From NCBI GenBank assembly GCA_034429075.1, contig DAOUGO010000151.1, positions 2,020 through 66,019 on the forward strand: a DNA stretch of 64,000 bases, given 5' to 3'. Position numbers and translations under genes: made by a program. The first letter of the stretch is position 1; the number at the start of each line of letters is the position of its first letter. The notes under the pieces are model-generated. The model was not told where the DNA came from and searched no databases. It saw only the letters and a list, made by a program, of their open reading frames with translations. Positions 1-16,657 of this stretch are shown piece after piece. This DNA comes from Chloroflexota bacterium (GTDB lineage: Bacteria; Chloroflexota; UBA6077; FW602-bin22; CADDYW01).

Positions 1-1278
1 ATCCCGGGCGACGATGCTTTCAGCCCGACGCGCTTTACCCCGACGTCCTGGAACATTGCTGACCAGCTAACCCTGACCGGTTATGCAATCGACGGCGAGA
101 TCACCGGCGGGCAAACAGTAAACGCCGAGCTCCGCTGGCACGTCCAGCGCACCCCCGCAGCCGACGACGGGATCTGGGTCGAGCTACAGGACGAAAGCGG
201 CCGGGGATGGGGGCGAGCGGATACCCGCCCCCGCGATGCCGGCTACCGCCCGAGTAGCGGCTGGACGCCAGGCGAAGAGGTGATTACCCGCCTCGATCTC
301 CCGATCGCGATCGGAACGCCGCCCGGTCGCTACATCCTCGTCGCAGGCGTGTATCGCCTGAGCGACCTCGCTGGTCTGGATGTACTGGATGCCGACCTGC
401 ATCCTATCGGTCAGATGGTCAGGCTGGGTACGGTTGTGATCACCCGGCCATCAGTTGGGACAACCGACCCCTCGCTCGATCAGATTGGTACCGCTGTCCG
501 ACCAGGGCTCACCCTTGCCGCCGCTCGCCTCTCAACAACGGCCGCCGGACCAGGCGACTCGATCCAGGTGACCCTCCTCTGGCGGGGAAACGGCTCCCTT
601 CCAGCCATGGATGAGACGCTTGCGCTCCAGAGCGGGAACGGGCATACGATCACCCGGGACCAGCGCAGCGTGGGCGACCAGTACCCAGCACCTCTCTGGC
701 CGCCCGGCGCGCTGGTTCGGGAACAGCACACCCTTCGCCTGCCCGCGGACGCCCCGGCCGGACCGGCCCAGGTGCTCCTCTCAGTTGCTGGCGGACAGCC
801 GCTCAGCCTCGGTACCGTAACAATCAATCGCGTTGTCCGCGACTTTGCCCGCCCGTCCCTGCCGCACCCCCTGCAGGCACGCTTCGGTGACGTGATCGCC
901 CTCGACGGCTACGACATCTCGGCAACGGACGCTCACCCGGGCGATCGGCTCGTTATGACCCTGGCCTGGAAATCGCTTCGTCCCACCACGACCAGCTACC
1001 ACGTCTTTGTTCATCTCCTGGATCGGCAGAACCGGATCCGGGCCCAGTGGGATGGCGTGCCGCGCGACTGGAGCTATCCGACCACGGCCTGGATGCCCGG
1101 CGAGTACATTCTCGACCACTACCCCCTGACTCTTCCGGAGACGCTTTCATCTGGTGTGCTCATCCCGGAGATTGGGCTGTACGACGCCCGGTCCGGTCAG
1201 CGCCTGCCCGTGACGACCGCCGAAGGCCAGCCAAGCGATCGCCTTCTCCTGCCCGCGATCCGCATCACGGCGCGCTAG
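1..1278 (+). CDS. 3' part of a larger gene truncated by the window edge. Encodes three copies of the ~90-aa repeat module shared with the neighbouring GT-C proteins, so it is probably the C-terminus of another GT-C/GT39-like protein.
   Basis: Frame 1 is open from nt 1 (IPGDDAFSPTRFTPTSWN...) to TAG at 1276-1278, so the ATG at 280 in the ORF track is internal. The last module, YHVFVHLLDRQNRIRAQWDGVPRDWSYPTTAWMPGEYILDHYPLTLP..EIGLYDARSGQRLPV, matches the C-termini of 1357..3345, 3317..6229 and 6927..9167. Confidence 0.7.
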   Translation: MPGDDAFSPTRFTPTSWNIADQLTLTGYAIDGEITGGQTVNAELRWHVQRTPAADDGIWVELQDESGRGWGRADTRPRDAGYRPSSGWTPGEEVITRLDLPIAIGTPPGRYILVAGVYRLSDLAGLDVLDADLHPIGQMVRLGTVVITRPSVGTTDPSLDQIGTAVRPGLTLAAARLSTTAAGPGDSIQVTLLWRGNGSLPAMDETLALQSGNGHTITRDQRSVGDQYPAPLWPPGALVREQHTLRLPADAPAGPAQVLLSVAGGQPLSLGTVTINRVVRDFARPSLPHPLQARFGDVIALDGYDISATDAHPGDRLVMTLAWKSLRPTTTSYHVFVHLLDRQNRIRAQWDGVPRDWSYPTTAWMPGEYILDHYPLTLPETLSSGVLIPEIGLYDARSGQRLPVTTAEGQPSDRLLLPAIRITAR

Positions 1279-1356
1279 GGGGCGCGCCTCTTCCCAAACC
1301 AGCCAATCCCGTGTACCCTAGAGCCGCTCCGGGGCGGCTCCCCGCCGCTCGGGGAG

Positions 1357-3345
1357 ATGACCCGGAGCACTGGGCCCCACGCCCGATTCTGCACTGCGGG
1401 GACGATGGATACATCGATCGCTCCTTTTACGGGAGCCATCACCAATCAGGCACGGGATGCGATGGCCGCACAGCGCCCCCGCTCCGGGAGGCCTCCGCGG
1501 CAGTGGGACCAGATAGCAATTGGGCTGGTGATCCTCGGTGCCCTGGCACTGCGTCTCTGGCACCTGACATTCCAGAGCCTGTGGTGGGATGAAGGGGTCA
1601 GCATCTATCTGGCGGGGCTCGACCTCCGGGCACTGACCATCGCCAAGGACTTCACCGTGGACCTCCACCCACCGGGCTATTACCTCATCCTATCAGCCTG
1701 GCGCTCTCTCCTCGGACCGTCAGTCTTTGCTGTACGGCTCCTATCGGTGTTCGCGGGAACGGTGACTGTGGCCCTGGTGTACGTCGTCGCCCGCCGTCTC
1801 TTCTCCGCCGGTCCGGCTCTCGGTGCCGCGCTCCTGGCCGCTCTCTCGCCGATTGATATCTACTACAGCCAGGAAGTGCGGATGTATGCGCTCCTGCCGG
1901 TGGTCGGCCTGCTCTCCCTGCTCGCCACCATCGCGGTGATCGAACGGCCGGGCCGCTGGGCGTGGCCTGCCTGGGTTGCCGCGAACGCGGTCGGGCTCTA
2001 CCTGTACTACTACCTGGGACTGCTTGCCGCGGCCGAGGTGCTCCTCCTGCTCGGACTCTCATTCCGTCGGGGCACTCTCACGTCGTGGCTCGGCGCCCAA
2101 AGCGCGCTCATCCTCCTGTACATTCCCTGGGGCTTGATCGCGCGCGTGCACCTCCCGAGCGCTGCCCTTGCTCTGCCCCCGGAAACGGCTGTCCACCTGA
2201 CCCCTTTCACCTACCTGCGCGACAACTGGCAAGACTTTACACTTGGTTTCTCCGCGCCTCCGGGGCAGATGATCCTCCTGGCTCTCTGGACCCTCGGGGT
2301 GGCCGTCGGGATCCTTCGCCTGGCCCGGTCGCACCCTATTCAGCTTGCTCTGTTTCTGCTTGCGGTTATCATCCCGCTGGCCGGGGCCGGTCTGATCGTG
2401 CTGGTCCGGCCGTTCTTCTATCCCCGCTTTATCCTCTTCGTCATCGCTCCCCTGTGGATACTCACCGGTACCGGACTGGCCAGCCTGCCCCGACTTCGCG
2501 GGGTCGGCCTGCTGGCTCTTGCGATCCTGCTTGCTGGCAGTGCCTGGACGGACTATCACGAGCGTACGACACCCCGCTACGGCTACGCGCCCGATGACTA
2601 CCGACAGGTTCTCCCGACGCTCGCCGCGTGGGCCCGTCCGGGCGATGTCATCCTGTGCGGCTATCCATGGCAGGTCGGGTACATTCAGGCATACCTGCCG
2701 GCAGCCAGGATGAACGCTATCTTTCTCCCCGGTCATCCATCCCCTGAGCTCCTCCAGAGCGTGATAGCCGGCTATCGCCGCGTCTGGGTGTACACATACT
2801 CCCCAGACCGCCCGACCTCCGAAAGCTGGATCGAGGGCTTGCTCGGCCAGCGATATCCAACCGCGCTGGTTGACCAGTTCGGCGATACGCGCATCCGGCT
2901 CTTTACCCTTTCCGACACAGAGCCCGCGCTTAGCGGATCATCCCTCGCCACGCTCGGTGGGGAGATCGCGCTCACATCCGCCGAACTCTCCACGACCGGG
3001 CCGCTCCGACCAGGCGAGATCCTCCGGGTTACCCTGCAATGGCAGGCCCTCCGCGCTCCCAGGGATGATTACACTGTGTTCGTCCATCTCCTGGGCCCGG
3101 ACGGCAAGATTCACGGACAGCAGGACGCGCCGCCTCTCCAGGGAGCCTTCCCGACCAGCCGGTGGCGACGGGGCGAGATCGTGATCGACCGATATGCTGT
3201 ACCTCTTCCGGCGAACACGCCAGCCGGCTCGTACCTGGTCGAGGTAGGGCTCTACCGACCATCGAACGGACAGCGCCTGACCGTCGGTCCGATCCCGGAG
3301 GCGGATAATCGGGTCATTGTGGGGAGGTTCACCATTGAGCGCTGA
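1357..3345 (+). CDS. Polytopic membrane glycosyltransferase, GT-C fold, family 39/83-like (ArnT/PMT-like), with one C-terminal repeat module.
   Basis: Many hydrophobic helices. The first-loop acidic motif is LWWDEGVSIYLA, typical of ArnT/PMT-type enzymes. The C-terminus reads DYTVFVHLLGPDGKIHGQQDAPPLQGAFPTSRWRRGEIVIDRYAVPLPANTPAGSYLVEVGLYRPSNGQRL. The start is uncertain (in-frame ATGs at 1357, 1405 and 1462). Confidence 0.8.
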   Translation: MTRSTGPHARFCTAGTMDTSIAPFTGAITNQARDAMAAQRPRSGRPPRQWDQIAIGLVILGALALRLWHLTFQSLWWDEGVSIYLAGLDLRALTIAKDFTVDLHPPGYYLILSAWRSLLGPSVFAVRLLSVFAGTVTVALVYVVARRLFSAGPALGAALLAALSPIDIYYSQEVRMYALLPVVGLLSLLATIAVIERPGRWAWPAWVAANAVGLYLYYYLGLLAAAEVLLLLGLSFRRGTLTSWLGAQSALILLYIPWGLIARVHLPSAALALPPETAVHLTPFTYLRDNWQDFTLGFSAPPGQMILLALWTLGVAVGILRLARSHPIQLALFLLAVIIPLAGAGLIVLVRPFFYPRFILFVIAPLWILTGTGLASLPRLRGVGLLALAILLAGSAWTDYHERTTPRYGYAPDDYRQVLPTLAAWARPGDVILCGYPWQVGYIQAYLPAARMNAIFLPGHPSPELLQSVIAGYRRVWVYTYSPDRPTSESWIEGLLGQRYPTALVDQFGDTRIRLFTLSDTEPALSGSSLATLGGEIALTSAELSTTGPLRPGEILRVTLQWQALRAPRDDYTVFVHLLGPDGKIHGQQDAPPLQGAFPTSRWRRGEIVIDRYAVPLPANTPAGSYLVEVGLYRPSNGQRLTVGPIPEADNRVIVGRFTIER

Positions 3346-6229
3346 TCGCCCCCATGCTCAGCCTGTTAGCTCCGAGCGTCCAATAGATCCTGCCACGCAG
3401 GCGACTGATCCGATTCTCCCGCGCCGTGGCCGGCTGATTGAGGCGCTCACTGCCGCGGCCATCCTCCTGGTCGCGGCAGCGCTCCGCCTGGTCGGCCTGG
3501 ATCATCTCCCGCCAGGGCTGTTCCAGGACGAGGCCGTTAACGGCGTCAACGCCCTGACCATCCTGGCTGGGCACCCGCGCATCTACTACGGCGAGCGCGA
3601 GCCGCTCTTCATGTACCTTGCCGCCTTCACGACCCTTCTCGTTGGATCATCGCCCTTCGCACTTCGTCTGGCCGCGGCCTTCGCCGGAATCCTCGGCGTG
3701 GCCGGGGGTGGTCTCCTGGCGCGCCAGCTCTACGATCGCCGGATCGGGCTGCTCACCGCAATTGGGCTCGGGGCATCGCTCTGGCTCACCACAATTAGCC
3801 GGATCGGACTGCGAGCGATCACCCTGCCCGCCGTCGAAAGCCTCGGCCTCGCCCTCCTGTGGCGTGCCGCGCGAACCGGCCGGATGCGGGATTACGCGAT
3901 CGCGGGCGTGGTCCTCGGCCTGGCCCTCTATACCTACCTCGCAGCACGCTTCCTGCCCGTTGCGCTGGCAGTATTCATCGGGCTGGCACTGCTCCTCGAC
4001 CGTCGCTGGCTTCTCCCCCGGTTCCGGGGCTTCGTCGTCGCAGGTGTGGTTGCCGTCGCTGTCTGCCTCCCTCTCGGCATTTACGCTCTTCACCGGCCAG
4101 ACATGCTTTTCGGGCGTCCCGAGCAGGTCGCCCTGCCAGGCGGCGCGGCGTTCTGGCCAGCGTTTCGGAGCGCGGTCGAGCGCACACTCGGGATGCTCCT
4201 GATCCACGGTGACGAGAACTGGCGGCAGAATTACAGCGGGGCGCCGGTCTTCGACATAATCAACGGGGGAGTGTTTCTCCTCGGGCTCGCGGTGGTAATC
4301 TGGCGGCGCCGCATTACTGACCTGTTCCTGCTTGTCCTGGCACTAACTATGCTCGCGCCCGGCATGCTCTCGATCGACAGCCCGCACTACCTCCGCACCG
4401 CGGGCGCCGCACCTGCGATCTACACGATCTGGGCAATTGGGGTGAATACTCTCGCTCGCCTGAGCCTCCGCCGATCACCGGGTCTGGCAGCAGGAGGACC
4501 AGGCCGCGGTGAGCGAGGCCTGGATGCCGTGCCTGGTAGCAGGGTACCTGCACGCCGCATGGTGCCGACAGTCCTCACGGCCGTAATGACCGTTAGTGTC
4601 ATTACCGTTGCCTTTGGCCGCACGGTTCGGACGTACTTCGTCGACTACGCGGCGAGCCCGGCCATGGCCGCCGCCTTCAACGTCAACCTTGCTGCAGCAG
4701 GGCGCTTCCTGGCCAGCGATCCCACCTGGGCAACCGATCGGGCCGATGTCTATGTCACTGACACCTATCGTCAGGACCGGGCGAGCGTCAGTTTCTTCCT
4801 CTACCCCCACCTGGAGCCGACCGCGCGCCTGAACTGGCTCGATGAGCCCAACGTCGGGACATTCTTCGACCAGGCAAAGACGATTCCCCTCCCGGTGAAG
4901 CCGTCGCTCTATATCATCGAGGGGAATGGCCAGGAGGTGCTTGACGCGCTCGGGCCGGCCGTCCAACGTATCGCGTGGATCTCCGATGGCGGATGGAGCG
5001 ATACGCGAGCGATCTGGGCGAATCCTGTGCCGTCCGAGTGGTTCGGTACGGCAATCGGCGCACGGTTTGGCCAATCGCTCGTCCTGGAACGCGCGATCGT
5101 GAGTGGTCATCGCGTTGGCCTTCGCTGGAAGATCCTTGCCCTCCCTGACTATCAGCCATCTATCTTCGTCCACGTTCTCGATGCCCAGGATCATACCCAG
5201 GCAGTGGCGGACCAGGTCATTGGCTTCCCCATTCAGCAGTGGCGGATCGGCCAGGAGTTCGTCACCTGGCACACGCTCCATCTCCCAACCGGCCTGGTGC
5301 CAGGACGCTACCGGATAACTGCCGGCGTGTATCGGAAGGAAACCCTCGTCCGTGAGCCGGCGGTTCTGGATGGTCAGCCCGTTGCCACGGTAGAGGTGGG
5401 TAAGCTCTCGGTCACGGCACCGGTGCCGGGCCCGCTTGATGTCTCACGGGCCATTGGCCGCGCCCTGGACCCCACTCTCGTGCTCGCTGGCTACGATCTT
5501 CCATCGGGTCACGTCGCGGCAGGGAGCACACTGTCGCTCACTCTGCTCTGGAAGCTCACCCACCCGATTCCCGATGACCGCGATGCAGTGGTCATCCTCC
5601 GGTCACCAAATGGCGACGCGATCAGCGCATGGACCGGGAAGATCGGCGGTCCTGACTATCCGACAAGCCGCTGGCAATCGGGAGTCCTCGTTCGTCAAAA
5701 TGTCGATCTGCCAGTGAGCGCGATAGCCCAGGGAACGGCGACGCTGAGCGTATCCGTGGGATCGGCGAGCATCGAGCTTGCTCGCCTCACCGTAGAGGCC
5801 CCGAGCCACCAGTTCACACCGCCACGCCCCCGCTATCCCCTCGCTGTGCAGTTCACTCCAGTGGGCTCACTCATCGGTGTCGATCTTCCCGACCGGGCGT
5901 TTCATCCCGGCGAGCTGGTCCCGATCACCCTCTACTGGAAGAGTGCAGGAACGGCTCCGATCCCTTATACGGTGTTCGTTCACCTTCTGGACGCGCGAAA
6001 CCACGTGATCGCCCAGCGTGATGAGCCGCCAGTCCACGGAACGCGCCCGACAACCAGCTGGGTGGCCAACGAATACATTACCGACCCGCATCAAATTCCC
6101 CTCGACCCGGCGGTCCCACCCGGCACCTACACGATCGAGGTCGGGTTGTACGATCCGCGAACGGGCGCGCGCGCATTCACTGGCACGCCCGAGAACCGCA
6201 TCATCACTGGCTCGGTGCGGGTGGAGTAG
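3317..6229 (+). CDS. Large polytopic GT-C (family 39-like) glycosyltransferase with a ~550-aa extracytoplasmic tail containing three repeat modules.
   Basis: N-terminal TM bundle with LPPGLFQDEAVNGVNA (a DE-type loop motif). Tail modules include PSIFVHVLDAQDH..QQWRIGQEF..PGRYRITAGVY, then DAVVILRSPNGD..YPTSRWQSGVLV, then PYTVFVHLLDARNHVIAQRDEPPVHGTRPTTSWVANEYITDPHQIPLDPAVPPGTYTIEVGLYDPRTGAR. A likelier start is TTG 3335, preceded by GGGGAGG. The gene overlaps the upstream gene's stop. Confidence 0.8.
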   Translation: MWGGSPLSADRPHAQPVSSERPIDPATQATDPILPRRGRLIEALTAAAILLVAAALRLVGLDHLPPGLFQDEAVNGVNALTILAGHPRIYYGEREPLFMYLAAFTTLLVGSSPFALRLAAAFAGILGVAGGGLLARQLYDRRIGLLTAIGLGASLWLTTISRIGLRAITLPAVESLGLALLWRAARTGRMRDYAIAGVVLGLALYTYLAARFLPVALAVFIGLALLLDRRWLLPRFRGFVVAGVVAVAVCLPLGIYALHRPDMLFGRPEQVALPGGAAFWPAFRSAVERTLGMLLIHGDENWRQNYSGAPVFDIINGGVFLLGLAVVIWRRRITDLFLLVLALTMLAPGMLSIDSPHYLRTAGAAPAIYTIWAIGVNTLARLSLRRSPGLAAGGPGRGERGLDAVPGSRVPARRMVPTVLTAVMTVSVITVAFGRTVRTYFVDYAASPAMAAAFNVNLAAAGRFLASDPTWATDRADVYVTDTYRQDRASVSFFLYPHLEPTARLNWLDEPNVGTFFDQAKTIPLPVKPSLYIIEGNGQEVLDALGPAVQRIAWISDGGWSDTRAIWANPVPSEWFGTAIGARFGQSLVLERAIVSGHRVGLRWKILALPDYQPSIFVHVLDAQDHTQAVADQVIGFPIQQWRIGQEFVTWHTLHLPTGLVPGRYRITAGVYRKETLVREPAVLDGQPVATVEVGKLSVTAPVPGPLDVSRAIGRALDPTLVLAGYDLPSGHVAAGSTLSLTLLWKLTHPIPDDRDAVVILRSPNGDAISAWTGKIGGPDYPTSRWQSGVLVRQNVDLPVSAIAQGTATLSVSVGSASIELARLTVEAPSHQFTPPRPRYPLAVQFTPVGSLIGVDLPDRAFHPGELVPITLYWKSAGTAPIPYTVFVHLLDARNHVIAQRDEPPVHGTRPTTSWVANEYITDPHQIPLDPAVPPGTYTIEVGLYDPRTGARAFTGTPENRIITGSVRVE

Positions 6230-6815
6230 AGGCGATCGGGGCATTGAGGAAGTTCATGGCCGGCCTGAGACCGTGGGTAAGCAAGATCTCGATGCCTGCG
6301 ACGACACGGGCGATGATACCATCGAGCCCGGCTTCTTCATCGGCCGTGAATGTCGAGAGGACATAGTCAACCGGATCGACCCCGGCCGGAGGTCGGCCAA
6401 TTCCCACGCGCAGGCGAAGGAAGTGATCCGTCCCAAGCTGATCGATGATCGACTGGATGCCGCGCTGTCCGCCTGAGCTCCCTTTTTCCCGCAGACGCAG
6501 CCGACCAAACGGTAAATCGAGATCATCGGCAATGACCAGAAGTGCAGATGGTTCGAGGTTCGCCATTCTGATGAGACAGCGCACCGCCTCACCACTCAGG
6601 TTCATGTAGGTCAGCGGCTTCCCGAGCATAAGGCGATGGCCAAAGACCTCACCCTCAGCAACCTCCGCCCGGCAGCGCTCGCGGCGAAACTGGAAGCCCC
6701 AGCGGCGCGCCAGTGCTTCGATACAGCGAAAGCCGATATTGTGGCGAGTCCGCTCGTAACGCTTTCCCGGGTTCCCAAGCCCCACGATAAGGCGGACAGA
6801 CGGCCGGTCGCCCAT
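6204..6815 (-). CDS. pth: Peptidyl-tRNA hydrolase.
   Basis: LIVGLGNPGKRYERTRHNIGF and the rest of the Pth fold motifs. The ORF extends to 6851, but ATG 6815 (MGDRPSVRLIVGLGNPG) gives the canonical N-terminus. The 3' end overlaps the convergent gene 3317..6229 by 26 nt. Confidence 0.9.
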   Translation of the reverse strand: MGDRPSVRLIVGLGNPGKRYERTRHNIGFRCIEALARRWGFQFRRERCRAEVAEGEVFGHRLMLGKPLTYMNLSGEAVRCLIRMANLEPSALLVIADDLDLPFGRLRLREKGSSGGQRGIQSIIDQLGTDHFLRLRVGIGRPPAGVDPVDYVLSTFTADEEAGLDGIIARVVAGIEILLTHGLRPAMNFLNAPIASTPPAPSQ

Positions 6816-6926
6816 ACGCGCGGGTCCCGGCACAGTACCTGATTGCTCCACGCTTCCCCTTGTACTCGCTCGTGATCAGTCGGGCGCAGCCCGGCATCCG
6901 CCCTCCACCATCCATTGCCTGAATCC

Positions 6927-9167
6927 TTACGGTCCGGGCAGGGGCAGGACGGCCAGGAGTGCAGTATCCCCGTGCTGGCCGGGCCCACTCACCGACAGGC
7001 GGTGAAGTGTTTGATGGTCATAGACCACCACCGTGAGGCGATACAAGCCGGACGGTAATCCTCGTGGAAGGTCCAGGGGGACCGCATCCCAGACCTGCTG
7101 CCCCGGCTCCCACGTGGTCGTCGGCATGGTATTATCCACCGGCATCGCATCGTGCTGCGCAACCAGCCTTCCCGTGCTGCTGAGTAGCTGAAGCGACACC
7201 GTGTAATCGCGATCGATCGTGGCGTGGGCCCGCCAGTGAAGGATCACGGTAAGCTTCTCCGAGTGTTCGTCTGGCCCACGTGTCGGCACAACGCGGAAGC
7301 CGGCAAGGACCATGGACCTGCCGAACGTAGCGTTGATCATCTGCTCACCCGGGGCACGCGCGGGGCTGTACGTCTCCAGCTGAACACTCCCGGCTGTCCG
7401 CTCCACCGGCGGACCGTAGCGTGCGGAAAGCCAGCGGCGCACAGCGGGCAGTACTGGCGATGCAGGGGCGCGGGTATCAGACACGACGACAATCGACGAG
7501 TGATCCCGAACCGCATCATCCAGACGGTGATACAGCGAGCGGTCGCCGGTCCAGGACAGCAGATGCGGCTCGGCCAGCAGCACCATCGTCCGCGGTTGAG
7601 CCAATGCGGCGAGCCGGTCCAGGACCGTCGTCTGGGTGAACACGATCACCGCGTTCGGATCGGTCAGCTTCAACGCCTCCGCCACCGGCGCGTCTCCGGT
7701 GCGGTCGAGCATTGCCGCCTCCAGGCGCGGTGCCGTTTCGATCAGGCCGATGAGCGCCGCGAGCGTGATCAGCCCTACCACCGGGCGTACCAGCCCGCGC
7801 CGCCAGCGGTCCAGTTGCGCCGCAGCCGACGGGCTGAGCGTGAACGCGGCCTCGATGGCGATCCACAGCAGCAGGGCGGTCCGGACCGCCACGCTGATCC
7901 AGAGCAGCTCGTGCACCGTTGGAAAGAGAGTGATGTAAAGGTATCCCTCCAGAACGACGCTGTCGAGCCAGAGGAGCGTCGCGAGGATCGCACCATCAAC
8001 GCTCGGCAGAAGAATCGCCACGAACGGTAAAAGCCAGACCAGGAATTGCTCGCTAAACCCTTTCGAGAGAAGCAGGATCAGGGCGACCGCCAGGGCGGTC
8101 ACGCCGATGGCGGCACGTGGTGTACCAATACGGCGAGCCACCCACCAGCGCCAGAGGAAAAAGGCGCCCCCGAGCGCCAGGGCCGCCCACCACAGGACCG
8201 GGGAGCGAGCAGGATGCCCCCACGATGCGCTGGCCGGATAGAAGAGGCGATCCGAGATCGCGGCCACACCGCCAGGATCGTAGTAGCCATCCAGTAAGGC
8301 CCATGGGCTCAACCAGGACCCCCGCGCCAGGATATTCTCGATCGTGGCCAGGAACATTGTCCGCCCGAGGATAAGGAACGGCAGGGAGATCATCCCGACC
8401 GCAATGAGCATCGCACCCACGGCAGTCCCGGCCAGGACGAGCGGCGAGTTGATTAATCGCTCCTCATCCAGCGGACGTGAGGTAGAGGGAGTCCGTGCAA
8501 GTACGGGTGCGGCCACCACAGCCACGGCGGGAAAGAGCTTCAACATCACGCCGACGCCCGCCGCCAGTCCCGCGGCCGCGCTGAGCCCCAATCGCCAGGT
8601 GCGGCCGGCGCCGCGCGCACCCACCAGGAGAAGAGCAAGTGCCAGGAGAAGGAAGAAAGTCGGCAACGCATCGAACCAGCCGAGCACCGCGTACGCCGGC
8701 AGGAAGAACGCGGCGTACAGCACGGCTGATCGTCGGCCGAGCGGCGGTCCCCAGAATGCATCGCCCAGATAATCGATGAGCACAATTGTCCCCGCGTCCG
8801 CCGCGGCCAGCACCAGGGTAACCAGCAGGTCGAACCAAAAGAGAGGATGGATCCAGGGTGGGACGAGCAGGCTCATCCGGTACAACACAACCGCGAGCCA
8901 GGGGAACAGAGGGGGATATTCGACCCAGAAGTGGATAGCCGGCAGGAAGCCCTGGGCCGAGAGCGACGCCAGCTCGTGATAATAGCGAAAATCAGACCAA
9001 TCAGGAGCTGTGCCGCCGTACCGGATCAGAAAGAGGACGGGGAGGCGAAAACCAAAAGCCAGCACGAGCAGCGCGGCCAGCGGGGGCCCCACCCCACTGC
9101 TCTCGCACTGCCCGCCCGGCCTGTCTGCTTCACCAGATCGACCGACCGACCTGACCGGCGCCTTCAC
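6927..9167 (-). CDS. Polytopic GT-C-fold membrane glycosyltransferase-like protein (DUF2029/GT87-like N-terminus) with one C-terminal repeat module.
   Basis: About 12 hydrophobic segments. The N-terminal loop is DFRYYHELASLSAQGFLPAIHFWVEYPPLFPW. The C-terminus is DYTVSLQLLSSTGRLVAQHDAMPVDNTMPTTTWEPGQQVWDAVPLDLPRGLPSGLYRLTVVVYD, the same module as in the three plus-strand proteins. The family assignment is from memory of motif shape only. Confidence 0.65.
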   Translation of the reverse strand: MKAPVRSVGRSGEADRPGGQCESSGVGPPLAALLVLAFGFRLPVLFLIRYGGTAPDWSDFRYYHELASLSAQGFLPAIHFWVEYPPLFPWLAVVLYRMSLLVPPWIHPLFWFDLLVTLVLAAADAGTIVLIDYLGDAFWGPPLGRRSAVLYAAFFLPAYAVLGWFDALPTFFLLLALALLLVGARGAGRTWRLGLSAAAGLAAGVGVMLKLFPAVAVVAAPVLARTPSTSRPLDEERLINSPLVLAGTAVGAMLIAVGMISLPFLILGRTMFLATIENILARGSWLSPWALLDGYYDPGGVAAISDRLFYPASASWGHPARSPVLWWAALALGGAFFLWRWWVARRIGTPRAAIGVTALAVALILLLSKGFSEQFLVWLLPFVAILLPSVDGAILATLLWLDSVVLEGYLYITLFPTVHELLWISVAVRTALLLWIAIEAAFTLSPSAAAQLDRWRRGLVRPVVGLITLAALIGLIETAPRLEAAMLDRTGDAPVAEALKLTDPNAVIVFTQTTVLDRLAALAQPRTMVLLAEPHLLSWTGDRSLYHRLDDAVRDHSSIVVVSDTRAPASPVLPAVRRWLSARYGPPVERTAGSVQLETYSPARAPGEQMINATFGRSMVLAGFRVVPTRGPDEHSEKLTVILHWRAHATIDRDYTVSLQLLSSTGRLVAQHDAMPVDNTMPTTTWEPGQQVWDAVPLDLPRGLPSGLYRLTVVVYDHQTLHRLSVSGPGQHGDTALLAVLPLPGP

Positions 9168-9248: not shown

Positions 9249-10649
9249 TCAATAGGCATTACGATCGGTGAACACGACGACCAGCGTCTTGAGGAGGATT
9301 TTGATATCCAGCCAGAGCGACCAGTTCTCGATGTACCAGACGTCGTAAGCCGTGCGCTCCTCGATAGAGGTATTTCCTCGCAGGCCATTGACCTGAGCCC
9401 AGCCGGTCAGACCAGCCTTCTCACGGTGGCGCTCGAAGTAACGGGGAATCGTCCGACGGAACTGCTCGACGAAGACCGGTCGCTCCGGGCGCGGCCCGAC
9501 GAGGCTCATATCACCCACCAGGACATTGATGAACTGGGGCAGCTCGTCCAGGGAATAGCGGCGCAGGATAGCCCCCAGACGGGTCCGACGTGGGTCGTTC
9601 GGGACCGCCCAGACGGCACCGGTTTCCTTTTCCGCATCCGGGCGCATCGTCCGAAACTTGATAATCGGAAATGGGCGCCCATCAAGCCCAACGCGCTCCT
9701 GGATCAGGAACACCGGCCCATCTGGTGAGGTTATCTTGATCAAGAGAGCGATCAGGAGCATGAGCGGGGAGAGCAGAACGAGAGCGATCGCGCTAACGAC
9801 AACATCCATCGCCCGCTTGATCGCCAGGTTCCAGCCGCGCAGGGCAACATCCTTGACACTGATTAACGGCAGGCCATTCAGATCGCCGATATTCACCCCT
9901 GAAGTCATGAACTGGAAGAGATCGGGGAAGACCTTAATATTCACCTTCTCGTTAGCGCACTGGGTCACCAGATCAAGAAGCCGCTGCCGGGAAAGGGTCG
10001 GAATAGCGATGACCACATCGTGGATCTGGTGAGTACGCACGACCTCGGCAATAGAGTCGAGAGTGCCCAGGACCGGAAGGCCGTGGGCAACGGTCGGGCC
10101 GGGCTCCTCGGCCAGGAAGCCGACCGGGCGATAGCCAATCCCCGGCGAATGTCGGATGCGCTCCAGCACCAGATGGGCCGGCTCCCCTGTACCGACGATC
10201 AGTAGACGGTGAACACCGATGCCCCGCTTCCGGAGACTAACCTGCAGGCGATAGATGACGTAGCGGACCACGGTGATGTAGAGGATCGAGAGTGCCCAGG
10301 CAAGGGCCACCATGAGACGGGACGAGCTCGTCTCCGGCCAGACGACCGAGGTCGAGACCATGGCAATCGCGGTGGCGACCGAAACACTGGTGAAGATGAG
10401 GTAGATGTGATCGACCCAGGAGATCGAGCGGCGGGGTCGATACATCCCATTGGCCCCGAGGACCACTACGGTCGCGATGACCAGCACGACGAGATAGCCC
10501 AGGTAATTCAGGAAGGGATGGAACTCCTCGAAGGCGATGAGATTACTCGCGAAGCGGAGGTAATAGGCGGTGACAACCGCGTTGACGACGGCAAGCGCGT
10601 CGACCGCCATCAGCACCAGCGTGATGTAGACAACCGACGTTCGCGACAT
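9249..10649 (-). CDS. Polyprenyl-phosphate sugar-1-phosphate transferase (WbaP/large PGT type); initiating enzyme for lipid-linked glycan synthesis.
   Basis: N-terminal TM helices plus a central nucleotide-binding-like domain. The C-terminal bacterial sugar-transferase domain reads SPDGPVFLIQERVGLDGRPFPIIKFRTMRPDAE..RRYSLDELPQFINVLVGDMSLVGPRPERP. Confidence 0.9.
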   Translation of the reverse strand: MSRTSVVYITLVLMAVDALAVVNAVVTAYYLRFASNLIAFEEFHPFLNYLGYLVVLVIATVVVLGANGMYRPRRSISWVDHIYLIFTSVSVATAIAMVSTSVVWPETSSSRLMVALAWALSILYITVVRYVIYRLQVSLRKRGIGVHRLLIVGTGEPAHLVLERIRHSPGIGYRPVGFLAEEPGPTVAHGLPVLGTLDSIAEVVRTHQIHDVVIAIPTLSRQRLLDLVTQCANEKVNIKVFPDLFQFMTSGVNIGDLNGLPLISVKDVALRGWNLAIKRAMDVVVSAIALVLLSPLMLLIALLIKITSPDGPVFLIQERVGLDGRPFPIIKFRTMRPDAEKETGAVWAVPNDPRRTRLGAILRRYSLDELPQFINVLVGDMSLVGPRPERPVFVEQFRRTIPRYFERHREKAGLTGWAQVNGLRGNTSIEERTAYDVWYIENWSLWLDIKILLKTLVVVFTDRNAY

Positions 10650-10689
10650 CCGAAGTCCCTTCGATCGCCTTCCAGGCCTGGCCCGCCAC

Positions 10690-11607
10690 TCAGCGGGCTG
10701 CCGCGGTCCGACCGGGTACCTTCGAGGGAATCTGACTGAGGGCGATCGCGAGCATCCCGCGCAGGTAGATCGCGGCGACGATCAGCCACCGAATCGGCCA
10801 GGCCGTCTGCCGCGCATAGTGCTTGCGGAAAAAGATAAGCATGGCCTGGTAGAAGGCGACCAGGGATTGCACGCTCCGCTGACGGCTGCTCGCTCGCTTG
10901 TAATGGCGCACGACCGTACGCCCATCGTAATAGACCTTCCAGCCAGCCTGCTTGATCCGAAGGGCCCAGTCCAGGTCCTCTCCATACATGAAGAAAGCCT
11001 CGTCCAGCAGACCGACCGTCCGCAGGATCTCCCCGCGGACCATCATGCAGGCACCCGCAACCGCATCTACTTCGGCCACTACGTCTGGATCCAGGTAGGT
11101 CAGGTTGTAGCGCCCAAAGCGGCGGCTTCGGGGGAACAGGCGGCTGAGCCCGGTCAGACGGTAGAGCGAGACAAGCGGCGTGGGGAAACTGCGCCGGCAG
11201 GCAAGGTCAAGCGAACCATCGCCGCGGATCAGCTTCGGGCCAACCACGCCGGCCTCCGGGTGCGCATCCAGGAACGCGACCATATCCGCCAGAGCAGTCG
11301 GCGTCAGCTCAGTATCCGGATTGAGCAGAAGGACATAGCGGGGAAGACCCGTAGGCCCCTCCCGCTCCAGGAGCGCCCGGAGGGCGATGTTGTTCGCCCG
11401 CGCATAGCCGAGATTCTGGTCCAGGGTAACCAGACGGACCCACGGGAACTCGGTCTGCACCATCTCCACCGTTCCATCGCGCGAGCAGTTATCAACAACC
11501 CACGTCTCGAGGCGCGGTGACGGGTCTGACCGGGCGATCGAGACCAGACACGCCCGCAGCAGATCCCGCACATTGTAGCTCACGATAACGATGACGAGGT
11601 CAGGCAC
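10690..11607 (-). CDS. Glycosyltransferase family 2.
   Basis: VIVIVSYNVRDLLRACLVSI..VVDNCSRDGT..LLLNPD; GT-A fold motifs. The likely start is GTG 11607, preceded by GGGGAGG. The ORF track starts at 11634. Confidence 0.85.
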   Translation of the reverse strand: MPDLVIVIVSYNVRDLLRACLVSIARSDPSPRLETWVVDNCSRDGTVEMVQTEFPWVRLVTLDQNLGYARANNIALRALLEREGPTGLPRYVLLLNPDTELTPTALADMVAFLDAHPEAGVVGPKLIRGDGSLDLACRRSFPTPLVSLYRLTGLSRLFPRSRRFGRYNLTYLDPDVVAEVDAVAGACMMVRGEILRTVGLLDEAFFMYGEDLDWALRIKQAGWKVYYDGRTVVRHYKRASSRQRSVQSLVAFYQAMLIFFRKHYARQTAWPIRWLIVAAIYLRGMLAIALSQIPSKVPGRTAAAR

Positions 11608-12554
11608 CGGCCGCCTCCCCGCAGGCGCCACCACACGCCAACCGGGTACCCGAGCATTTTGGCCAGGTCTCCGACCAGACGGAGCAGTGGCACCAGTAGC
11701 AGCGCTGCTCCCAGACGCGCATCAAACCTCCGTCCGTAGGCCCGGATAAGCCGCCGATAGGGCCGCCGGAGGTACAGGCAACCCCCCAGGCCCAGGGCCA
11801 GCCAGGCCGGGTTATACCAGAATCCCAGGCGGAAGACAAGCGGCGCTCCAAGATACGTCAGGTACCGAATCAAGTGCCGATGGAGCCACAGGTTGGCCTT
11901 CCCATCACCCCGCGCATAGAGGAAGTACTGGCGGAAGAAAGCCGCCAGCGATGGGCGCGGGCGAAAGTAGACGACCGCCCCCGGCACCCAGGCGAAGCGC
12001 AGGCCTGCCCGGCGAAGGGCCAGATCGAAGACGACATCCTCGCAGTAGTCCAGCCATTCCGGGTAACCGCCGGCGATCTCCCAGGCCCGCCGCGTATAGG
12101 CGATAGAGCGAGACGAGGGAATGAACCGATCCGGCACGATCTCATCCACATCTGGCAGGGTCGTGGCCCCCAGCGCGCGCTCGAAGAGCGTCCGCGGGTC
12201 GGCCACGAAGAAGCCCATTGCCACGTCCGCGCCCCGGGCGAGCGGCTCGATGATTCGCTCCAGCCAGCGCGGATCAAGCCGCACCCCGGCATCAGTGCAG
12301 GCGATGACATCGCCGGTCGCGGCGGCGATCGCCCGGTTCCGCCCGACCGCGATAGAGGCTCCGGGGCAGGAGATCAGGCGCAGGCCGGCGATGCGGTCGC
12401 CCCAGGCACGAATCCGCGCGACCGTTCGATCGCGCGATCCGCCGTCAACGATTACGACTTCGTCTGGCGGGCGTGTCTGCGCTGCGATCGAGGCGAGCAG
12501 AGCATCAATCGACTGCTCTTCGTTGAGAACGGTGGCAATCAGCGACACCCTCAT
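11580..12554 (-). CDS. Glycosyltransferase family 2 with a C-terminal membrane segment.
   Basis: VSLIATVLNEEQSIDALLASIAAQTRPPDEVVIVDGGSRDRT..CTDAG. ATG 12554 forms an ATGA overlap with the stop of the upstream hydrolase gene (plus strand tcat at 12551-12554). Confidence 0.85.
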   Translation of the reverse strand: MRVSLIATVLNEEQSIDALLASIAAQTRPPDEVVIVDGGSRDRTVARIRAWGDRIAGLRLISCPGASIAVGRNRAIAAATGDVIACTDAGVRLDPRWLERIIEPLARGADVAMGFFVADPRTLFERALGATTLPDVDEIVPDRFIPSSRSIAYTRRAWEIAGGYPEWLDYCEDVVFDLALRRAGLRFAWVPGAVVYFRPRPSLAAFFRQYFLYARGDGKANLWLHRHLIRYLTYLGAPLVFRLGFWYNPAWLALGLGGCLYLRRPYRRLIRAYGRRFDARLGAALLLVPLLRLVGDLAKMLGYPVGVWWRLRGGGRCLTSSSLS

Positions 12555-14371
12555 TGAGATCGCTCCCGCTTCTCGATCACCGCCGGGCATCGCGGGTGTG
12601 CTGCTGTCCAGCCGAGAACCCCCAGTCCAGCGAGAACCCCGGCGATGGTCTCGAAAAGACGCGCTGGGGGCCAGATGCTATCCGCGACGATGCCGTCGAT
12701 CGCGGCGCGGCCGGAGAGAACGCGGACCTCAACGTGGTGGACGCCCGGTCCGAGCCCATCGGCAACCGGCCAGCGCACCTGCCAGCGCTCGGATGGGGCA
12801 GAGAGATCCAGCACCGCCTGCCCATTCACGATCGGCAGGCGATTCGCCTCGAACGGCAGGCCGTCGATCGTGATCGCGAGCCTTCCCCAGGACGGGCCGG
12901 CCGGGGCGACCAGGTCAAACCACGCCGCGTTGATATCGAAGGAGAGCGTCGCACCGGCAGTCGAGCTTTCCTCGACATACCCGAGGCTCGCTCGGGGGTC
13001 AGCGACCCGCGCCCATCCGGGTCCCCAGTGCAAGGCCCAGTGATCCTCCTGATGGTAGCCGCGGTAGAGAACGGGCGGCGACGTCATCAGCCGCTGCAGG
13101 GCGAAGTAGATCGGCTCCTTATGCCAGTTCACATCAACCATGTCGAAGTAGTACTGCTGGGACTGCTGGTTCTGCGGGTAGACCATCCGGAAGTGCCAGA
13201 CGGCCATGACCCCCATCCAGGGCCACTGTTCGGCCGCTCGCTGGTAGGCGCGCACGGTGTACTCGGCCTGCAGATCCCGACTGACGCTCCCCCAGAGCGG
13301 CGGCTCCGGCCAGTTCGGCGGCAGCGAGTTCCAGCCAATCTCGGATGCCCAGATGGGCTTACCAGCATCCCCATTCCGGACCATAATCTCGCGCAGGACG
13401 ACCGGATGCGAGAAGTTCACGTCATTCGGCTGGGTAAAGCGCCAGTCATCTGGTCCATCGCGCAGGCCATAGGCGTTGGTTGAGAGGATATCGAAATACG
13501 GCCGTGCCCCAGCGTCGTACATAGCCTGGAGGAAGAGCGTGTCCGGCATCGCTGTCGCGTCGTTCTGAACAGTCGGCGCCAGTGCAGCGGAGAGAATGAC
13601 CACCGATGGATCGACCTCTTTCGCTCTTATATACGCAACGCGCAACAGGCGGACATAGGCGGCCGGATCCGGGCGCTGCCCCCCCCACTCTACCGCAAGG
13701 TTGGGCTCGTTCCAGATCTGGTAGTAATGCACCTGTCCCTTGTACCGCCGCACTACTGTGGCAACGAAGTCGCCGAAATCGTTGACATCGCGCGGCGGCG
13801 TCCGCTCGGGAATGTGATCTGCCGCCGGCAGCGGCATGGGACGTGCCCACTCCGGGGTGGTATCGATGCGAAAGATCACCTCAAGCCCGCGCTGCCGCGC
13901 GAGTTCGACAATCCGGTCGTAGTTTGCCCACGCACTCTTGCCGGGCACCCGACGGTCCTCATAGAGCCCCTTCCGCGGTCGTTCGACATTACTCCAGAGG
14001 AGTTCCTGCTTGATGAAATGGAAGCCGGCTGCCTTCACCAGATCGAGCGTGCGTGCGACATTCGCCGTCTCAACTTCCTGGTCGAGAAAGACGTTGACTG
14101 CATACGGCGGCACACTCGTATGGGCGATTGGCACCAGGTCGTCGGTCTGGGTCGGCCGAGCAGTCGCCATGGTATACACTGCGAGAATCTGATTCTTCAG
14201 GCGGACGCCGAGGAGACGCACTACCAGTCCGCGAACCGGTGCCCGACTGATGCCCACGAGCCCGACGCCGATGATCAGCACCAGGACAATGACTGCGCAC
14301 AGGTGCCCGATCCTCCAGCGCGCCGGGCTATGGCACCCGGCTGACACCGGCCAGCTCATGGTAGAAGTCAT
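12551..14371 (-). CDS. Membrane-anchored glycoside hydrolase, clan GH-A (GH5-like TIM barrel), with a C-terminal beta-rich extension.
   Basis: Single N-terminal TM helix (LCAVIVLVLIIGVGLVGI). The acid/base motif is YYQIWNEPNL and the nucleophile-like motif is KPIWASEIGWNS. The family number was not verified. Confidence 0.7.
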   Translation of the reverse strand: MTSTMSWPVSAGCHSPARWRIGHLCAVIVLVLIIGVGLVGISRAPVRGLVVRLLGVRLKNQILAVYTMATARPTQTDDLVPIAHTSVPPYAVNVFLDQEVETANVARTLDLVKAAGFHFIKQELLWSNVERPRKGLYEDRRVPGKSAWANYDRIVELARQRGLEVIFRIDTTPEWARPMPLPAADHIPERTPPRDVNDFGDFVATVVRRYKGQVHYYQIWNEPNLAVEWGGQRPDPAAYVRLLRVAYIRAKEVDPSVVILSAALAPTVQNDATAMPDTLFLQAMYDAGARPYFDILSTNAYGLRDGPDDWRFTQPNDVNFSHPVVLREIMVRNGDAGKPIWASEIGWNSLPPNWPEPPLWGSVSRDLQAEYTVRAYQRAAEQWPWMGVMAVWHFRMVYPQNQQSQQYYFDMVDVNWHKEPIYFALQRLMTSPPVLYRGYHQEDHWALHWGPGWARVADPRASLGYVEESSTAGATLSFDINAAWFDLVAPAGPSWGRLAITIDGLPFEANRLPIVNGQAVLDLSAPSERWQVRWPVADGLGPGVHHVEVRVLSGRAAIDGIVADSIWPPARLFETIAGVLAGLGVLGWTAAHPRCPAVIEKRERSQ

Positions 14372-15551
14372 CCAGTCGCGGAAGGATCACCTGCCAATCA
14401 AACCGGCTCCGCACCAGCTCGCGGGCAGAGACGCCCAGTGCCGCTCCCAGGGCCGGCTCCTCCAGCACGCGTACGGTCCGGTCAGCAAACTCCACGGCAG
14501 TCCGTGCCAGGAGATAGTGCTCACCGTCGCGCCCGCCGATCCCGGCGACACCCAGCGGCGTGGAGATGACCGGCACCCCCATGGCCATAGCCTGGAGCAC
14601 CTTCAGCCGAACCCCGCTTCCCATCCGCATCGGTACGACGAGCGCACTGGCTCGATCGAACCACGGACGCTCATCCGGGACGGCGCCGATAATCTCTACA
14701 CCGTCCAGGCGTGCCAGCCGCTGGTACTCCGGGCGCAGATCTCGTCCCACGATCAGGAGTCGAGCTTGCGGTCGGCGCCTGCGGATCAGCGGCCAGATCT
14801 CCGCCGTGAACCAGCTGATCGCGTCGATATTAGGGCGGTAATCCATCTTTCCGATGAACAGGACCGTCTCCCCATTTACCTCGCGCGGTCCGGGTGCGTA
14901 GTGCCCGGTATCAACTCCATTCGGAACAATGCAGGCACGGAGCGGAGGATACAGGGCCCGCAGTGCCGCCTCGTCTTCGCCAGAGACGACGATGACGCCG
15001 TGCACCGCGCGGCAGGCACGCTGCTCATACCGACGGAGACGCCGTGCCTGGATGAACGAGTAGAGTGCAGGTAGCCACTGCCCCGCGCGCACACTGACCC
15101 TCCACGCGGAGGCCTGCAGGCTGTATTCGGCGTTGTGCGCGTCCAGGACGACCAGGGGACCGACTCCGTGCCGTCCGGTGCGCGCGCCCTCCCAGAGCCC
15201 GTACATCTCCAGGCCCTCGATCTGCACGAGATCGAAGGACAAGTGCTCGAGCCGACGACGAACCTGCTCGACAAAGGCCGGTGACCACAGTCGCCGCGCC
15301 AGATCCGGTTCGAGTGAGACGAGTAAGGTCACTATACGCTCGGGGAGTGTCCACCGCGGGGGAGAAAGGATTACCACCTCGCGGGCGTACTCCTGAAGCA
15401 CCCGCATCGCCGCAGTATCGGCGGGATTGCCGAACGCGACAAGCGAGACCTCGTGCTGCCGGCTCAGCCAGCGGAGGAGATAGAAATTCCGCAATGCTGC
15501 CCCGTGGTCCGCCGGGAAAGGCGCGCGCGGGGCAAGCATCAAGACCCGCAT
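14328..15551 (-). CDS. Glycosyltransferase family 4 (GT-B fold).
   Basis: MRVLMLAPRAPFPADHGAALRNFYL.. N-terminus. The C-terminal region reads VVPMRMGSGVRLKVLQAMAMGVPVIST. ATG 15551 is preferred over the ORF-track start at 15623 and overlaps the upstream GT4 stop by 13 nt. Confidence 0.85.
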   Translation of the reverse strand: MRVLMLAPRAPFPADHGAALRNFYLLRWLSRQHEVSLVAFGNPADTAAMRVLQEYAREVVILSPPRWTLPERIVTLLVSLEPDLARRLWSPAFVEQVRRRLEHLSFDLVQIEGLEMYGLWEGARTGRHGVGPLVVLDAHNAEYSLQASAWRVSVRAGQWLPALYSFIQARRLRRYEQRACRAVHGVIVVSGEDEAALRALYPPLRACIVPNGVDTGHYAPGPREVNGETVLFIGKMDYRPNIDAISWFTAEIWPLIRRRRPQARLLIVGRDLRPEYQRLARLDGVEIIGAVPDERPWFDRASALVVPMRMGSGVRLKVLQAMAMGVPVISTPLGVAGIGGRDGEHYLLARTAVEFADRTVRVLEEPALGAALGVSARELVRSRFDWQVILPRLDDFYHELAGVSRVP

Positions 15552-16657
15552 GCCATTGCCTGACGATACACCGCCAACGTCTCCCGCGCTGCGGTCAGCC
15601 AGTCGAACCGACCCGCCCGACACCGCCCGCGCTCACCCAGCTCACGGCGGAGCGTCGGATCATCCCACAGGCAGGCGAGTGCCTGTGCGATCTCCTCAAC
15701 ATCAGTCGGCTCGACGAGAAGCCCTGCATCACCGATCACCTCCGGCAGAGCCGCCACATTGGCGCCGACCACCGGACACCCGCGGGCCATCGCCTCCAGC
15801 GCGGGCAGGCCAAACCCCTCGTAGAGCGATACCAGGACCAGGGCGATCGCTCGGTCATACAGCGCAACGAGATCCTCGCGCGTTACTCCGCCGAGGAAGC
15901 GAACGGCATCCCCGAGACGGGCAGCGGCCTGATCAAGGTCATCCAGGAGCCAGCCGCGCTGGCCAGCCAGCGCAAGCAGCGGGCCGTGCGGGCCGACACG
16001 CTGCCGAAAAAGCTCAAATGCCGTTATCAGGCGTATCAGATTCTTGCGGGGCTCCAGTGTGCCAACGAAGAGAAAGTACGGCCGATCGAGGCCGAAGCGT
16101 TCGACCAGACGGCGCGCCGATCCATCAGGCGGCAGTGTCCTCAGGACTGGATCCACTCCCTCGGCAATCACGGCGATCTTCTCGGCACGTGCCCCGGTCA
16201 GCTCCAGGATGTCGCGGCGTGTCGCTTCAGACACGGCAATGATCCGATCCGCCTCGCGCACTGCACGGTAGATCTGGCCGTAGTAACGACGGCTCTCGGC
16301 GGTCAGCAACTCTGGAAATCGCAGGAAGGCGAGGTCGTGAACCGTCACCACACGCGCCCATGCCGCTCCCAGGCGTGCCGGCGGGATGAAGTCCGGGCTG
16401 TGAACAACATCGACCGACAGCCTCCGCAGCTCAGCACCGAGTGTCCATCGTTCAAGCCGGTGATGGCAGGGCGTCCAGACCACGTGGTGCCGAAATGGGC
16501 ACATCAGTCGGGACTGACGATCGCGACGGCTGACCAGGACGATCACTTCGTCATCGGCGCCGGCGACCTGACGGAATCCCTGAAGAAGGCCGCGGATGTA
16601 GGTCGCCGTTCCGCCCTGCTGATAGGCGAGAAGCCGTGCGTCAATCGCCACTCGCAC
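15539..16657 (-). CDS. Glycosyltransferase family 4 (GT-B fold); first gene of the glycan operon.
   Basis: MRVAIDARLL..GGTATYIRGLL N-terminus and the EX7E-type motif SLYEGFGLPALEAMARGCPVVGANVAALPEV. GTG start at 16657 or 16651. Confidence 0.85.
   Translation of the reverse strand: MRVAIDARLLAYQQGGTATYIRGLLQGFRQVAGADDEVIVLVSRRDRQSRLMCPFRHHVVWTPCHHRLERWTLGAELRRLSVDVVHSPDFIPPARLGAAWARVVTVHDLAFLRFPELLTAESRRYYGQIYRAVREADRIIAVSEATRRDILELTGARAEKIAVIAEGVDPVLRTLPPDGSARRLVERFGLDRPYFLFVGTLEPRKNLIRLITAFELFRQRVGPHGPLLALAGQRGWLLDDLDQAAARLGDAVRFLGGVTREDLVALYDRAIALVLVSLYEGFGLPALEAMARGCPVVGANVAALPEVIGDAGLLVEPTDVEEIAQALACLWDDPTLRRELGERGRCRAGRFDWLTAARETLAVYRQAMACGS

Follow-up and report, generated by a model that had tools for sequence, protein, structure and literature searches.

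A recurrent C-terminal domain on GT-C membrane glycosyltransferases of Chloroflexota, predicted to be an Ig-like beta-sandwich with a candidate role in glycan binding

The DNA analyzed here is a stretch of 64,000 nucleotides (the window) from the genome of a Chloroflexota bacterium (contig DAOUGO010000151.1, assembly GCA_034429075.1, positions 2,020 to 66,019). At one end of it lie four neighboring genes, which we refer to as p1 to p4, whose products resemble membrane glycosyltransferases of the GT-C type and share a module at their C-termini. This module is a discrete domain that is uncatalogued in curated libraries, and its carriers belong to six or more GT-C families. On balance, we lean toward the view that it is an extracytoplasmic glycan-binding accessory sandwich that would tether a polymeric acceptor or product to GT-C enzymes. 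It most likely represents a very common, uncurated instance of an accessory beta-sandwich on glycan-handling membrane enzymes, involving no new mechanism.

Results

Eight copies of one module in four neighboring proteins

An initial annotation of the window had described four open reading frames ending in one shared module. The open reading frames are confirmed, and their products are related by pairwise BLASTP E-values of 1e-6 to 1e-39, scaled to an effective database of 1e8 residues. Gene p1 (1..1278, + strand) is partial, as it runs off the window edge; its translation provides the last 425 residues of a GT-C protein of the PMT_2 type. A syntenic metagenome contig, L080, encodes a 917-residue PMT_2 protein whose residues 493-917 match this translation with 96% identity. 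Genes p2 (1357..3345, +; 662 residues) and p3 (3317..6229, +; 970 residues) also encode PMT_2-type GT-C proteins, while p4 (6927..9167, -; 746 residues) encodes a divergent GT87/PimE/ALG3-like GT-C protein. The true start of p2 is probably Met17, at nucleotide 1405, rather than the ATG at 1357, because both its L080 ortholog and an NCBI protein identical to it (100%; 'glycosyltransferase family 39 protein [Chloroflexi bacterium]') have 646 residues. The TTG start of p3 at 3317 is in doubt as well, the L080 ortholog having 948 residues instead of 970.

Among p1-p4 as encoded in the window, BLASTP matches are confined to the C-terminal parts. The strongest links p1 and p3 (E 1.4e-39 over 396 residues, with three modules in register); p2 matches p3 with E 2.2e-16 and p1 with E 2.7e-14, and p4 matches p2 with E 6.8e-10 and p3 with E 1.4e-6. 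Alignment and hidden Markov model (HMM) searches place eight copies in the four proteins, distributed as 3, 1, 3 and 1. The repeats had thus been recognized correctly, and the one to three copies assigned to each gene can now be replaced by these counts. When all frames of the 64-kb window were searched with an HMM built from the eight copies, no ninth copy was detected.

The three copies in p1 lie at 43..450 (HMM envelope residues 15-150, supported by alignment), 481..819 (residues 161-273) and 871..1272 (residues 291-424), all on the + strand. In the second of these the QxD motif and the last strand are missing, which is typical of middle copies, and the terminal one is the best conserved, with 39% identity to the p2 module (E 2.7e-14). 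The single copy of p2 (2944..3342, +; residues 530-662) is the one used for structure prediction below. In p3, HMM envelopes delimit a first module at 5054..5422, a degenerate middle copy at 5453..5809 and a terminal copy at 5840..6226 (all +), the last being 40% identical to the p2 module (E 2.2e-16). The p4 module spans 6933..7340 (-; HMM envelope, residues 610-745).

The module is longer than the roughly 90 residues first assigned to it. That is, it measures about 120-135 residues and begins some 45 residues upstream of the Y-x-V-F-V-H-L-L motif, at 'FG..I.LLGYDL....PG..L.LTLYWQA'.

Conservation and library searches

Across 53 aligned modules, numbered by the p2 module, W34 and W75 are invariant, and conservation reaches 90% or more at F47, D62, P71, T72, D83, G96, G103, Y105 and R112. 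H49, Q60 and E79 also count among the conserved positions. In the p2 family the H, Q, D, T, W, D, Y and R positions of the module are invariant. Judged from these alignments, conservation extends past the hydrophobic core.

The module had been described as impossible to assign to a named domain, and this holds. The module regions of p1-p4 have no match at E<=1 beyond noise in Pfam-A and NCBIfam, and scans of the 53 isolated modules against the same two libraries return no significant family. Searches of PDB sequences with profiles of the 8 and the 53 modules, and with full-length p2 and p4, yield noise or nothing, and Wzt is absent from their results. The sub-threshold Pfam matches of the isolated modules all fall in Ig-like or E-set-type beta-sandwich families: the ML domain (PF02221) is the commonest (7 of 53 modules, best E 0.027), followed by DUF4832 (5), FlgD_ig (4) and Wzt_C (PF14524; 3 modules, best E 0.017). 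Wzt_C also appears below threshold in 2 of 37 p4-family proteins (best E 0.0055). Full-text literature searches found no relevant description of the module on Chloroflexota GT-C enzymes.

Predicted fold

A model of the p2 module was computed with AlphaFold2 from this copy and 53 aligned sequences. The model has a predicted local distance difference test score (pLDDT) of 96.1 and a predicted template-modeling score (pTM) of 0.88, and consists of an eight-strand beta-sandwich with one short helix, in line with the beta-rich character proposed for the module at the outset. An independent model of full-length p4 (pLDDT 85.6) contains a sandwich at residues 609-743 with the same strand order. The fold is therefore predicted to be an eight-strand beta-sandwich of the E-set/Ig-like type.

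When the module model was compared with the PDB using Foldseek, the top matches were carbohydrate-binding domains of Wzt (8dl0_A, 8dky_A and 2r5o_A; E 2.5e-5 to 6.5e-5), with template-modeling scores normalized to the query (TMq) of 0.62-0.64 and sequence identities of 11-14%. NPC2/ML domains come next, from rank 3 onward (E 4e-5, TMq 0.49-0.56). Later groups are, in order, the fungal effector NIS1, accessory sandwiches of GH3, GH2 and GH123 enzymes, and RbmA. On these models, the likeness to all these structures is one of fold and does not amount to demonstrated homology.

The rank of the NPC2 structures raises the question of whether the module might instead be a lipid cup of the ML type, as in NPC2 and MD-2, that supplies the active site with its polyprenyl-phosphate-sugar donor or with a glycolipid acceptor. 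MD-1 and MD-2 are indeed among the matches of the p4 model, and the ML domain leads the sub-threshold Pfam matches. However, the TM-scores of these structures are below those of Wzt, and none of the sequence matches is significant. Moreover, the conserved residues of the module are mainly polar or charged, not cavity-lining hydrophobics, and three tandem cups are hard to rationalize. Solved GT-C enzymes hold their lipid donors inside the membrane domain, which also counts against this interpretation. We consider a lipid cup very unlikely.

One module on different GT-C scaffolds

The membrane domains of the four proteins belong to two GT-C types, as the initial annotation had recognized. The first is PMT_2 (PF13231), which matches p2 with 50.6 bits and p3 with 48.2 bits against a gathering cut-off of 26.1; the full-length p1 ortholog on L080 is also above the gathering score, with 67.8 bits. 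In p2, the residues W76, W77, D78 and E79 are invariant in a family alignment of 27 homologs, and the corresponding first-loop motif of p3 is Q70-D71-E72. By sequence, p1-p3 are GT-C proteins of the PMT_2 type, and p2 and p3, with their acidic D-E motif in the first loop, are predicted catalysts.

The second type is that of p4, with its EYPPL loop. The p4 sequence itself has no Pfam or NCBIfam match at E<=1, GT87 (PF09594, DUF2029) included. GT87 is nonetheless matched by 11 of the 37 aligned p4-family members (best E 4.3e-9), and Foldseek searches with the p4 model retrieve ALG3 (9s6r, target-normalized TM-score, TMt, 0.65) and PimE (9dm5, TMt 0.59, E 1.8e-4, 19% identity), as well as AglB/STT3, ALG6 and DPY19; EmbB is a weak whole-protein match at rank 19. 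The GT87 matches of its family members, the helix layout of the AlphaFold2 model and the ALG3 and PimE folds together tie p4 to this class. We thus model p4 as a divergent GT87-like GT-C protein, with a resemblance to PimE and ALG3 at the level of the fold.

That one module sits on different scaffolds, as had been proposed, is shown by profile comparisons with hhalign. The C-terminal tails of the p2 and p4 families (p2 residues 399-662, p4 residues 481-746) align with a probability of 99.9% and E 8e-37, whereas the membrane domains alone reach a probability of 0.4%. These tails include a linker between the last transmembrane helix and the module, which in p2 occupies 2557..2943 (+) and aligns in register with an alpha/beta linker of p4 (7341..7730, -; residues 480-609), where the AlphaFold2 model has an alpha/beta domain at residues 493-600 with alternating strands and helices at residues 507-600. 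Compared by themselves, the linkers give a probability of 29% and E 5.7e-4, which is not significant alone. Linker and sandwich together may constitute the mobile unit.

Among the PMT_2-type proteins the relationships form a mosaic. The membrane scaffold of the p1 ortholog (L080, 17892-20645, -) aligns with that of p2 (31% identity over 628 residues, E 1e-42), while its triple array aligns with that of p3 (32% identity, E 6e-37); the p3 scaffold has no BLASTP alignment with the scaffold of either p2 or the p1 ortholog. This suggests that module arrays have been exchanged or differentially lost among paralogs. The mosaic fits an exchange of tails but does not prove it.

Predicted location of the module

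Topology was derived from hand-assigned helices and the positive-inside rule, using counts of lysine plus arginine. Eleven transmembrane helices are predicted in p2 (membrane domain 1513..2556, +, with WWDE in the first outside loop), eleven in p3 and thirteen in p4 (membrane domain 7731..9080, -, with EYPPL in the first outside loop), the p4 helices being counted as membrane-spanning from the secondary structure of the AlphaFold2 model and from helix and loop charges. The density of lysine plus arginine is 0.168 in the inside loops and 0.073 in the outside loops of p2, 0.248 and 0.081 in p3, and 0.192 and 0.066 in p4; i.e., it is 2.3- to 3.1-fold higher inside. The N-termini of all three proteins are positively charged, and their C-terminal tails are predicted to lie on the side of the WWDE, QDE or EYPP first loop. 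The helix counts and the charge distribution fit the extracytoplasmic module that was originally envisaged, and we infer that the tail is outside, on the same side as the catalytic-type first loop. Solved GT-C enzymes with soluble C-terminal domains share this build.

Distribution and architecture of the arrays

A profile of the 53 modules was searched against 1.84 billion representative proteins, clustered at 50% identity. It matches 34,011 clusters at E<=1e-3, 24,917 at E<=1e-10 and 9,637 at E<=1e-30. In the 150 best representatives, the last copy forms the C-terminal end in every case (150 of 150; median tail, 1 residue) and the median protein length is about 970 residues; 143 of them carry three copies and 7 carry four, although this set was ranked by summed score and therefore favors multi-copy proteins. 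The shorter representatives were examined for stand-alone module proteins: of the 29 with fewer than 720 residues, about half lack an initial methionine, and many of the remainder resemble truncated or mis-started gene calls.

Each position of the array has its own consensus. The terminal position (position 3) is the strongest, with a mean of 149 bits and the complete motif set; position 1 averages 104 bits and retains GQxD...PT..W, and position 2 averages 89 bits, without QxD and the last strand.

When 50 of the best representatives were scanned with Pfam, 28 matched PMT_2, 11 PMT, 7 PTPS_related (PF10131), 1 DUF2079 and 1 a TMEM260-like family, with weak matches to STT3 and YfhO as well. A search based on p4 adds GT87 and PF11028. 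One of the 50 module-bearing proteins has NosD and Chlam_PMP beta-helix repeats. The sequence of this NosD-bearing protein may hint at use of the module beyond GT-C enzymes.

All source-named matches of the module come from Chloroflexota. A separate scan of GTDB species genomes used DYTVFVHL and an alignment of six closer sequences; it is biased toward p2-like modules and hence does not establish absence from other phyla. It gave over 590 confirmed matches, of which the 80 best are from Anaerolineae, Caldilineae, Ardenticatenales, Promineifilaceae and other Chloroflexota, except for two records, one labeled 'uncultured bacterium' and the other a short contig labeled Acidobacteria. The earlier description of a lineage-specific family is apt only at the scale of the phylum, and an assemblage of 34,011 clusters on multiple scaffolds is not one family. 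A second module-bearing open reading frame lies within about 3 kb at 26 of 79 Chloroflexota loci; clustering of paralogs is thus common and not special to the window.

The arrays bear on whether the module binds anything at all. It could be a non-binding Ig-like spacer or scaffold that projects the enzyme through the wall or sheath, or oligomerizes it through contacts between paralogs. Ig-like and E-set sandwiches often act as spacers, tandem arrays of three or four are a typical feature of stalks, the middle copy has degenerated and is truncated, and Foldseek also matches RbmA, a protein of the biofilm matrix, and fibronectin-like domains from GH3 enzymes. The terminal copy, however, holds H, Q, D, T, W, E, D, Y and R across sequences of 30-45% identity and unrelated scaffolds, and such dense conservation of polar and aromatic residues exceeds the needs of a spacer. 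In addition, p2 and p4, with a single copy each, retain exactly the best-conserved, terminal type. A pure spacer role is, in our estimation, rather unlikely.

Gene neighborhood

The four genes had been presented as standing side by side. They are neighbors but not one unit: p1, p2 and p3 are on the + strand, p4 is on the - strand, where a cluster of glycosylation genes ends with it, and pth, for peptidyl-tRNA hydrolase (6204..6851, -), lies between p3 and p4. The pth gene follows p4 on the same strand, and p1-p2-p3 converge on it from the other; as listed, its open reading frame shares 26 nucleotides with the 3' end of p3 on the opposite strand.

Upstream of p4, on the - strand, are genes for a WcaJ-like polyprenyl-phosphate hexose-1-phosphate transferase (9249..10649), two GT2 proteins (10690..11634 and 11580..12590; Pfam), a GH5-like protein (12551..14371) and two GT4 proteins (14328..15623 and 15539..16657; Pfam). 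The transferase matches TIGR03023, which names a WcaJ-type undecaprenyl-phosphate glucose phosphotransferase, with 485.8 bits (cut-off 410.75). The GH5-like protein has 606 residues, a hydrophobic N-terminal segment and a weak match to Pfam Cellulase (25.7 bits); it has no NCBIfam match. Its gene is kept inside the GT4-GT2-transferase operon of three related contigs from other assemblies, L080, L081 and L082, and its product could be a glycan-trimming or transglycosylating partner in the pathway. Genes for TatC and an unusually long (228-residue) TatA/B-family protein adjoin the glycosylation operon at 17035-18479 (-), and the same adjacency is found in L080.

The gene order of the upstream cluster (9249..16657) is conserved in all three contigs. 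The whole layout, including the 3/1/3/1 pattern of modules, recurs in L080 and L082, whose p4 orthologs are 92% and 56% identical to p4; in L081 (p4 50% identical) the operon recurs with p4, pth and a p2-like gene. In each of the three, pth lies between p4 and the PMT_2 genes. Since the order of the operon genes is kept down to 50% identity of p4, these genes have a conserved association with a pathway for polyprenyl-linked glycans.

This setting also informs the choice between glycan and protein as the ligand. The module might dock protein acceptors, i.e., S-layer, sheath or secreted proteins, for O-glycosylation, in the manner of MIR or TPR domains. The PMT_2, PMT and TMEM260-like scaffolds include protein O-mannosyltransferases, and PMT (11 of 50) and TMEM260-like (1 of 50) scaffolds are among those that carry the module. 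Eukaryotic PMTs, TMTCs and TMEM260 bear lumenal domains that face the substrate, which speaks for the same idea. Yet the module is also found on scaffolds of the GT87-like, PF10131 and DUF2079 families, none of which is known to glycosylate proteins; p4 directly follows an initiating transferase of the polysaccharide type, accompanied by GT2 and GT4 genes; and the nearest folds bind carbohydrate or lipid rather than peptide. Docking of protein acceptors therefore seems distinctly unlikely.

Discussion

Our preferred interpretation, that the module binds glycans, rests on the fold analogy, the conserved polar and aromatic residues and the gene context. The host enzymes would be GT-C membrane glycosyltransferases that depend on polyprenyl-phosphate-sugar donors and bear the module at their extreme C-terminus. 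From the N-terminus, the predicted order is a multi-helix GT-C membrane domain, the last transmembrane helix, a linker of about 125-145 residues, and then one or three sandwiches. The tail would be outside, beside the catalytic first loop, where the module would bind the acceptor or product glycan, i.e., an envelope polysaccharide or glycoconjugate. Such binding would hold the polymer in place at the active site, with avidity or reach gained from the triple arrays; the EmbC and AftD modules and the Wzt domain play this part in their own systems. Acceptor or polymer binding had already been put forward in the initial annotation, together with sequential or specialized transfer steps by the paralogs; both proposals are conjectural.

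Several observations weigh against glycan binding. The likeness to Wzt is at the fold level only (TM-score about 0.6, identity 11-14%), and the NPC2/ML structures are close behind (TMq 0.49-0.56). EmbC- and AftD-type modules do not appear among the 50 structures that match the module best, and no carbohydrate-binding family is linked to it significantly by sequence in Pfam-A and PDB sequence searches. With QxD and the last strand missing from the middle copies of triple arrays, binding need not involve every copy. Finally, the location outside the cell follows from helices assigned by hand.

A more far-reaching version of the glycan-binding proposal can be formulated. The module would then be a new, very large carbohydrate-binding family that is characteristic of how Chloroflexota build their envelope, its position-specific triple arrays would serve as a length ruler or processivity clamp that feeds a growing wall or sheath polysaccharide to many interchangeable GT-C scaffolds, and the GT87-like and PMT_2-like enzymes by the WcaJ-type operon would make up a dedicated line of extracytoplasmic glycan elaboration. 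We regard this extended version as unlikely.

The immediate significance of the module lies in annotation. Membrane glycosyltransferases of Chloroflexota, in the tens of thousands, take their names from the N-terminal scaffold only, as 'glycosyltransferase family 39 protein', 'DUF2723 domain-containing protein' or 'hypothetical protein', and about 135-400 C-terminal residues of each go unannotated. A domain definition would improve their annotation and provide a candidate carbohydrate-binding family. The isolated module could offer a handle on the envelope glycans of a major, poorly cultured phylum, and its occurrence across many GT-C scaffolds is a clean case of the evolution of one accessory domain. 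The accepted view of how GT-C enzymes work is unchanged by it.

As to known systems, the catalytic parts have clear counterparts: PMT_2/GT39-GT83 enzymes (ArnT and protein O-mannosyltransferase-like) for p1-p3, and GT87 (PimE-like) for p4. Characterized enzymes of these families, ArnT and PimE among them, are not known to carry such a sandwich at the C-terminus. The ML domain (NPC2, MD-2 and Der p 2; PF02221), the second-best structural group, shares the Ig-like beta-sandwich; ML domains, however, are secreted eukaryotic lipid binders with a hydrophobic cavity, whereas the conserved residues of the module are largely polar. The best structural match is the C-terminal domain of Wzt from O-antigen ABC transporters (PF14524; 2r5o, 6o14 and 8dky; PMC9445017), which, like the module, is a C-terminal beta-sandwich on a membrane machine that handles polyprenyl-linked glycans. 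Unlike the module, which follows the last GT-C transmembrane helix, is predicted to be outside and often comes in three tandem copies, Wzt_C is cytoplasmic and fused to the ABC ATPase. The closest functional analogy would be with the mycobacterial GT-C arabinosyltransferases EmbC (PMC3044687) and AftD (bioRxiv 10.1101/2019.12.22.885152). Although these have no sequence relation to the module, are built on GT53 instead of PMT_2 or GT87-like scaffolds and belong to another phylum, their design follows the same logic, with extracytoplasmic beta-sandwich modules on a GT-C membrane enzyme that hold the polysaccharide acceptor, and the C-terminal domain of EmbC is reported to be a lectin-like carbohydrate-binding module (PMC3044687).

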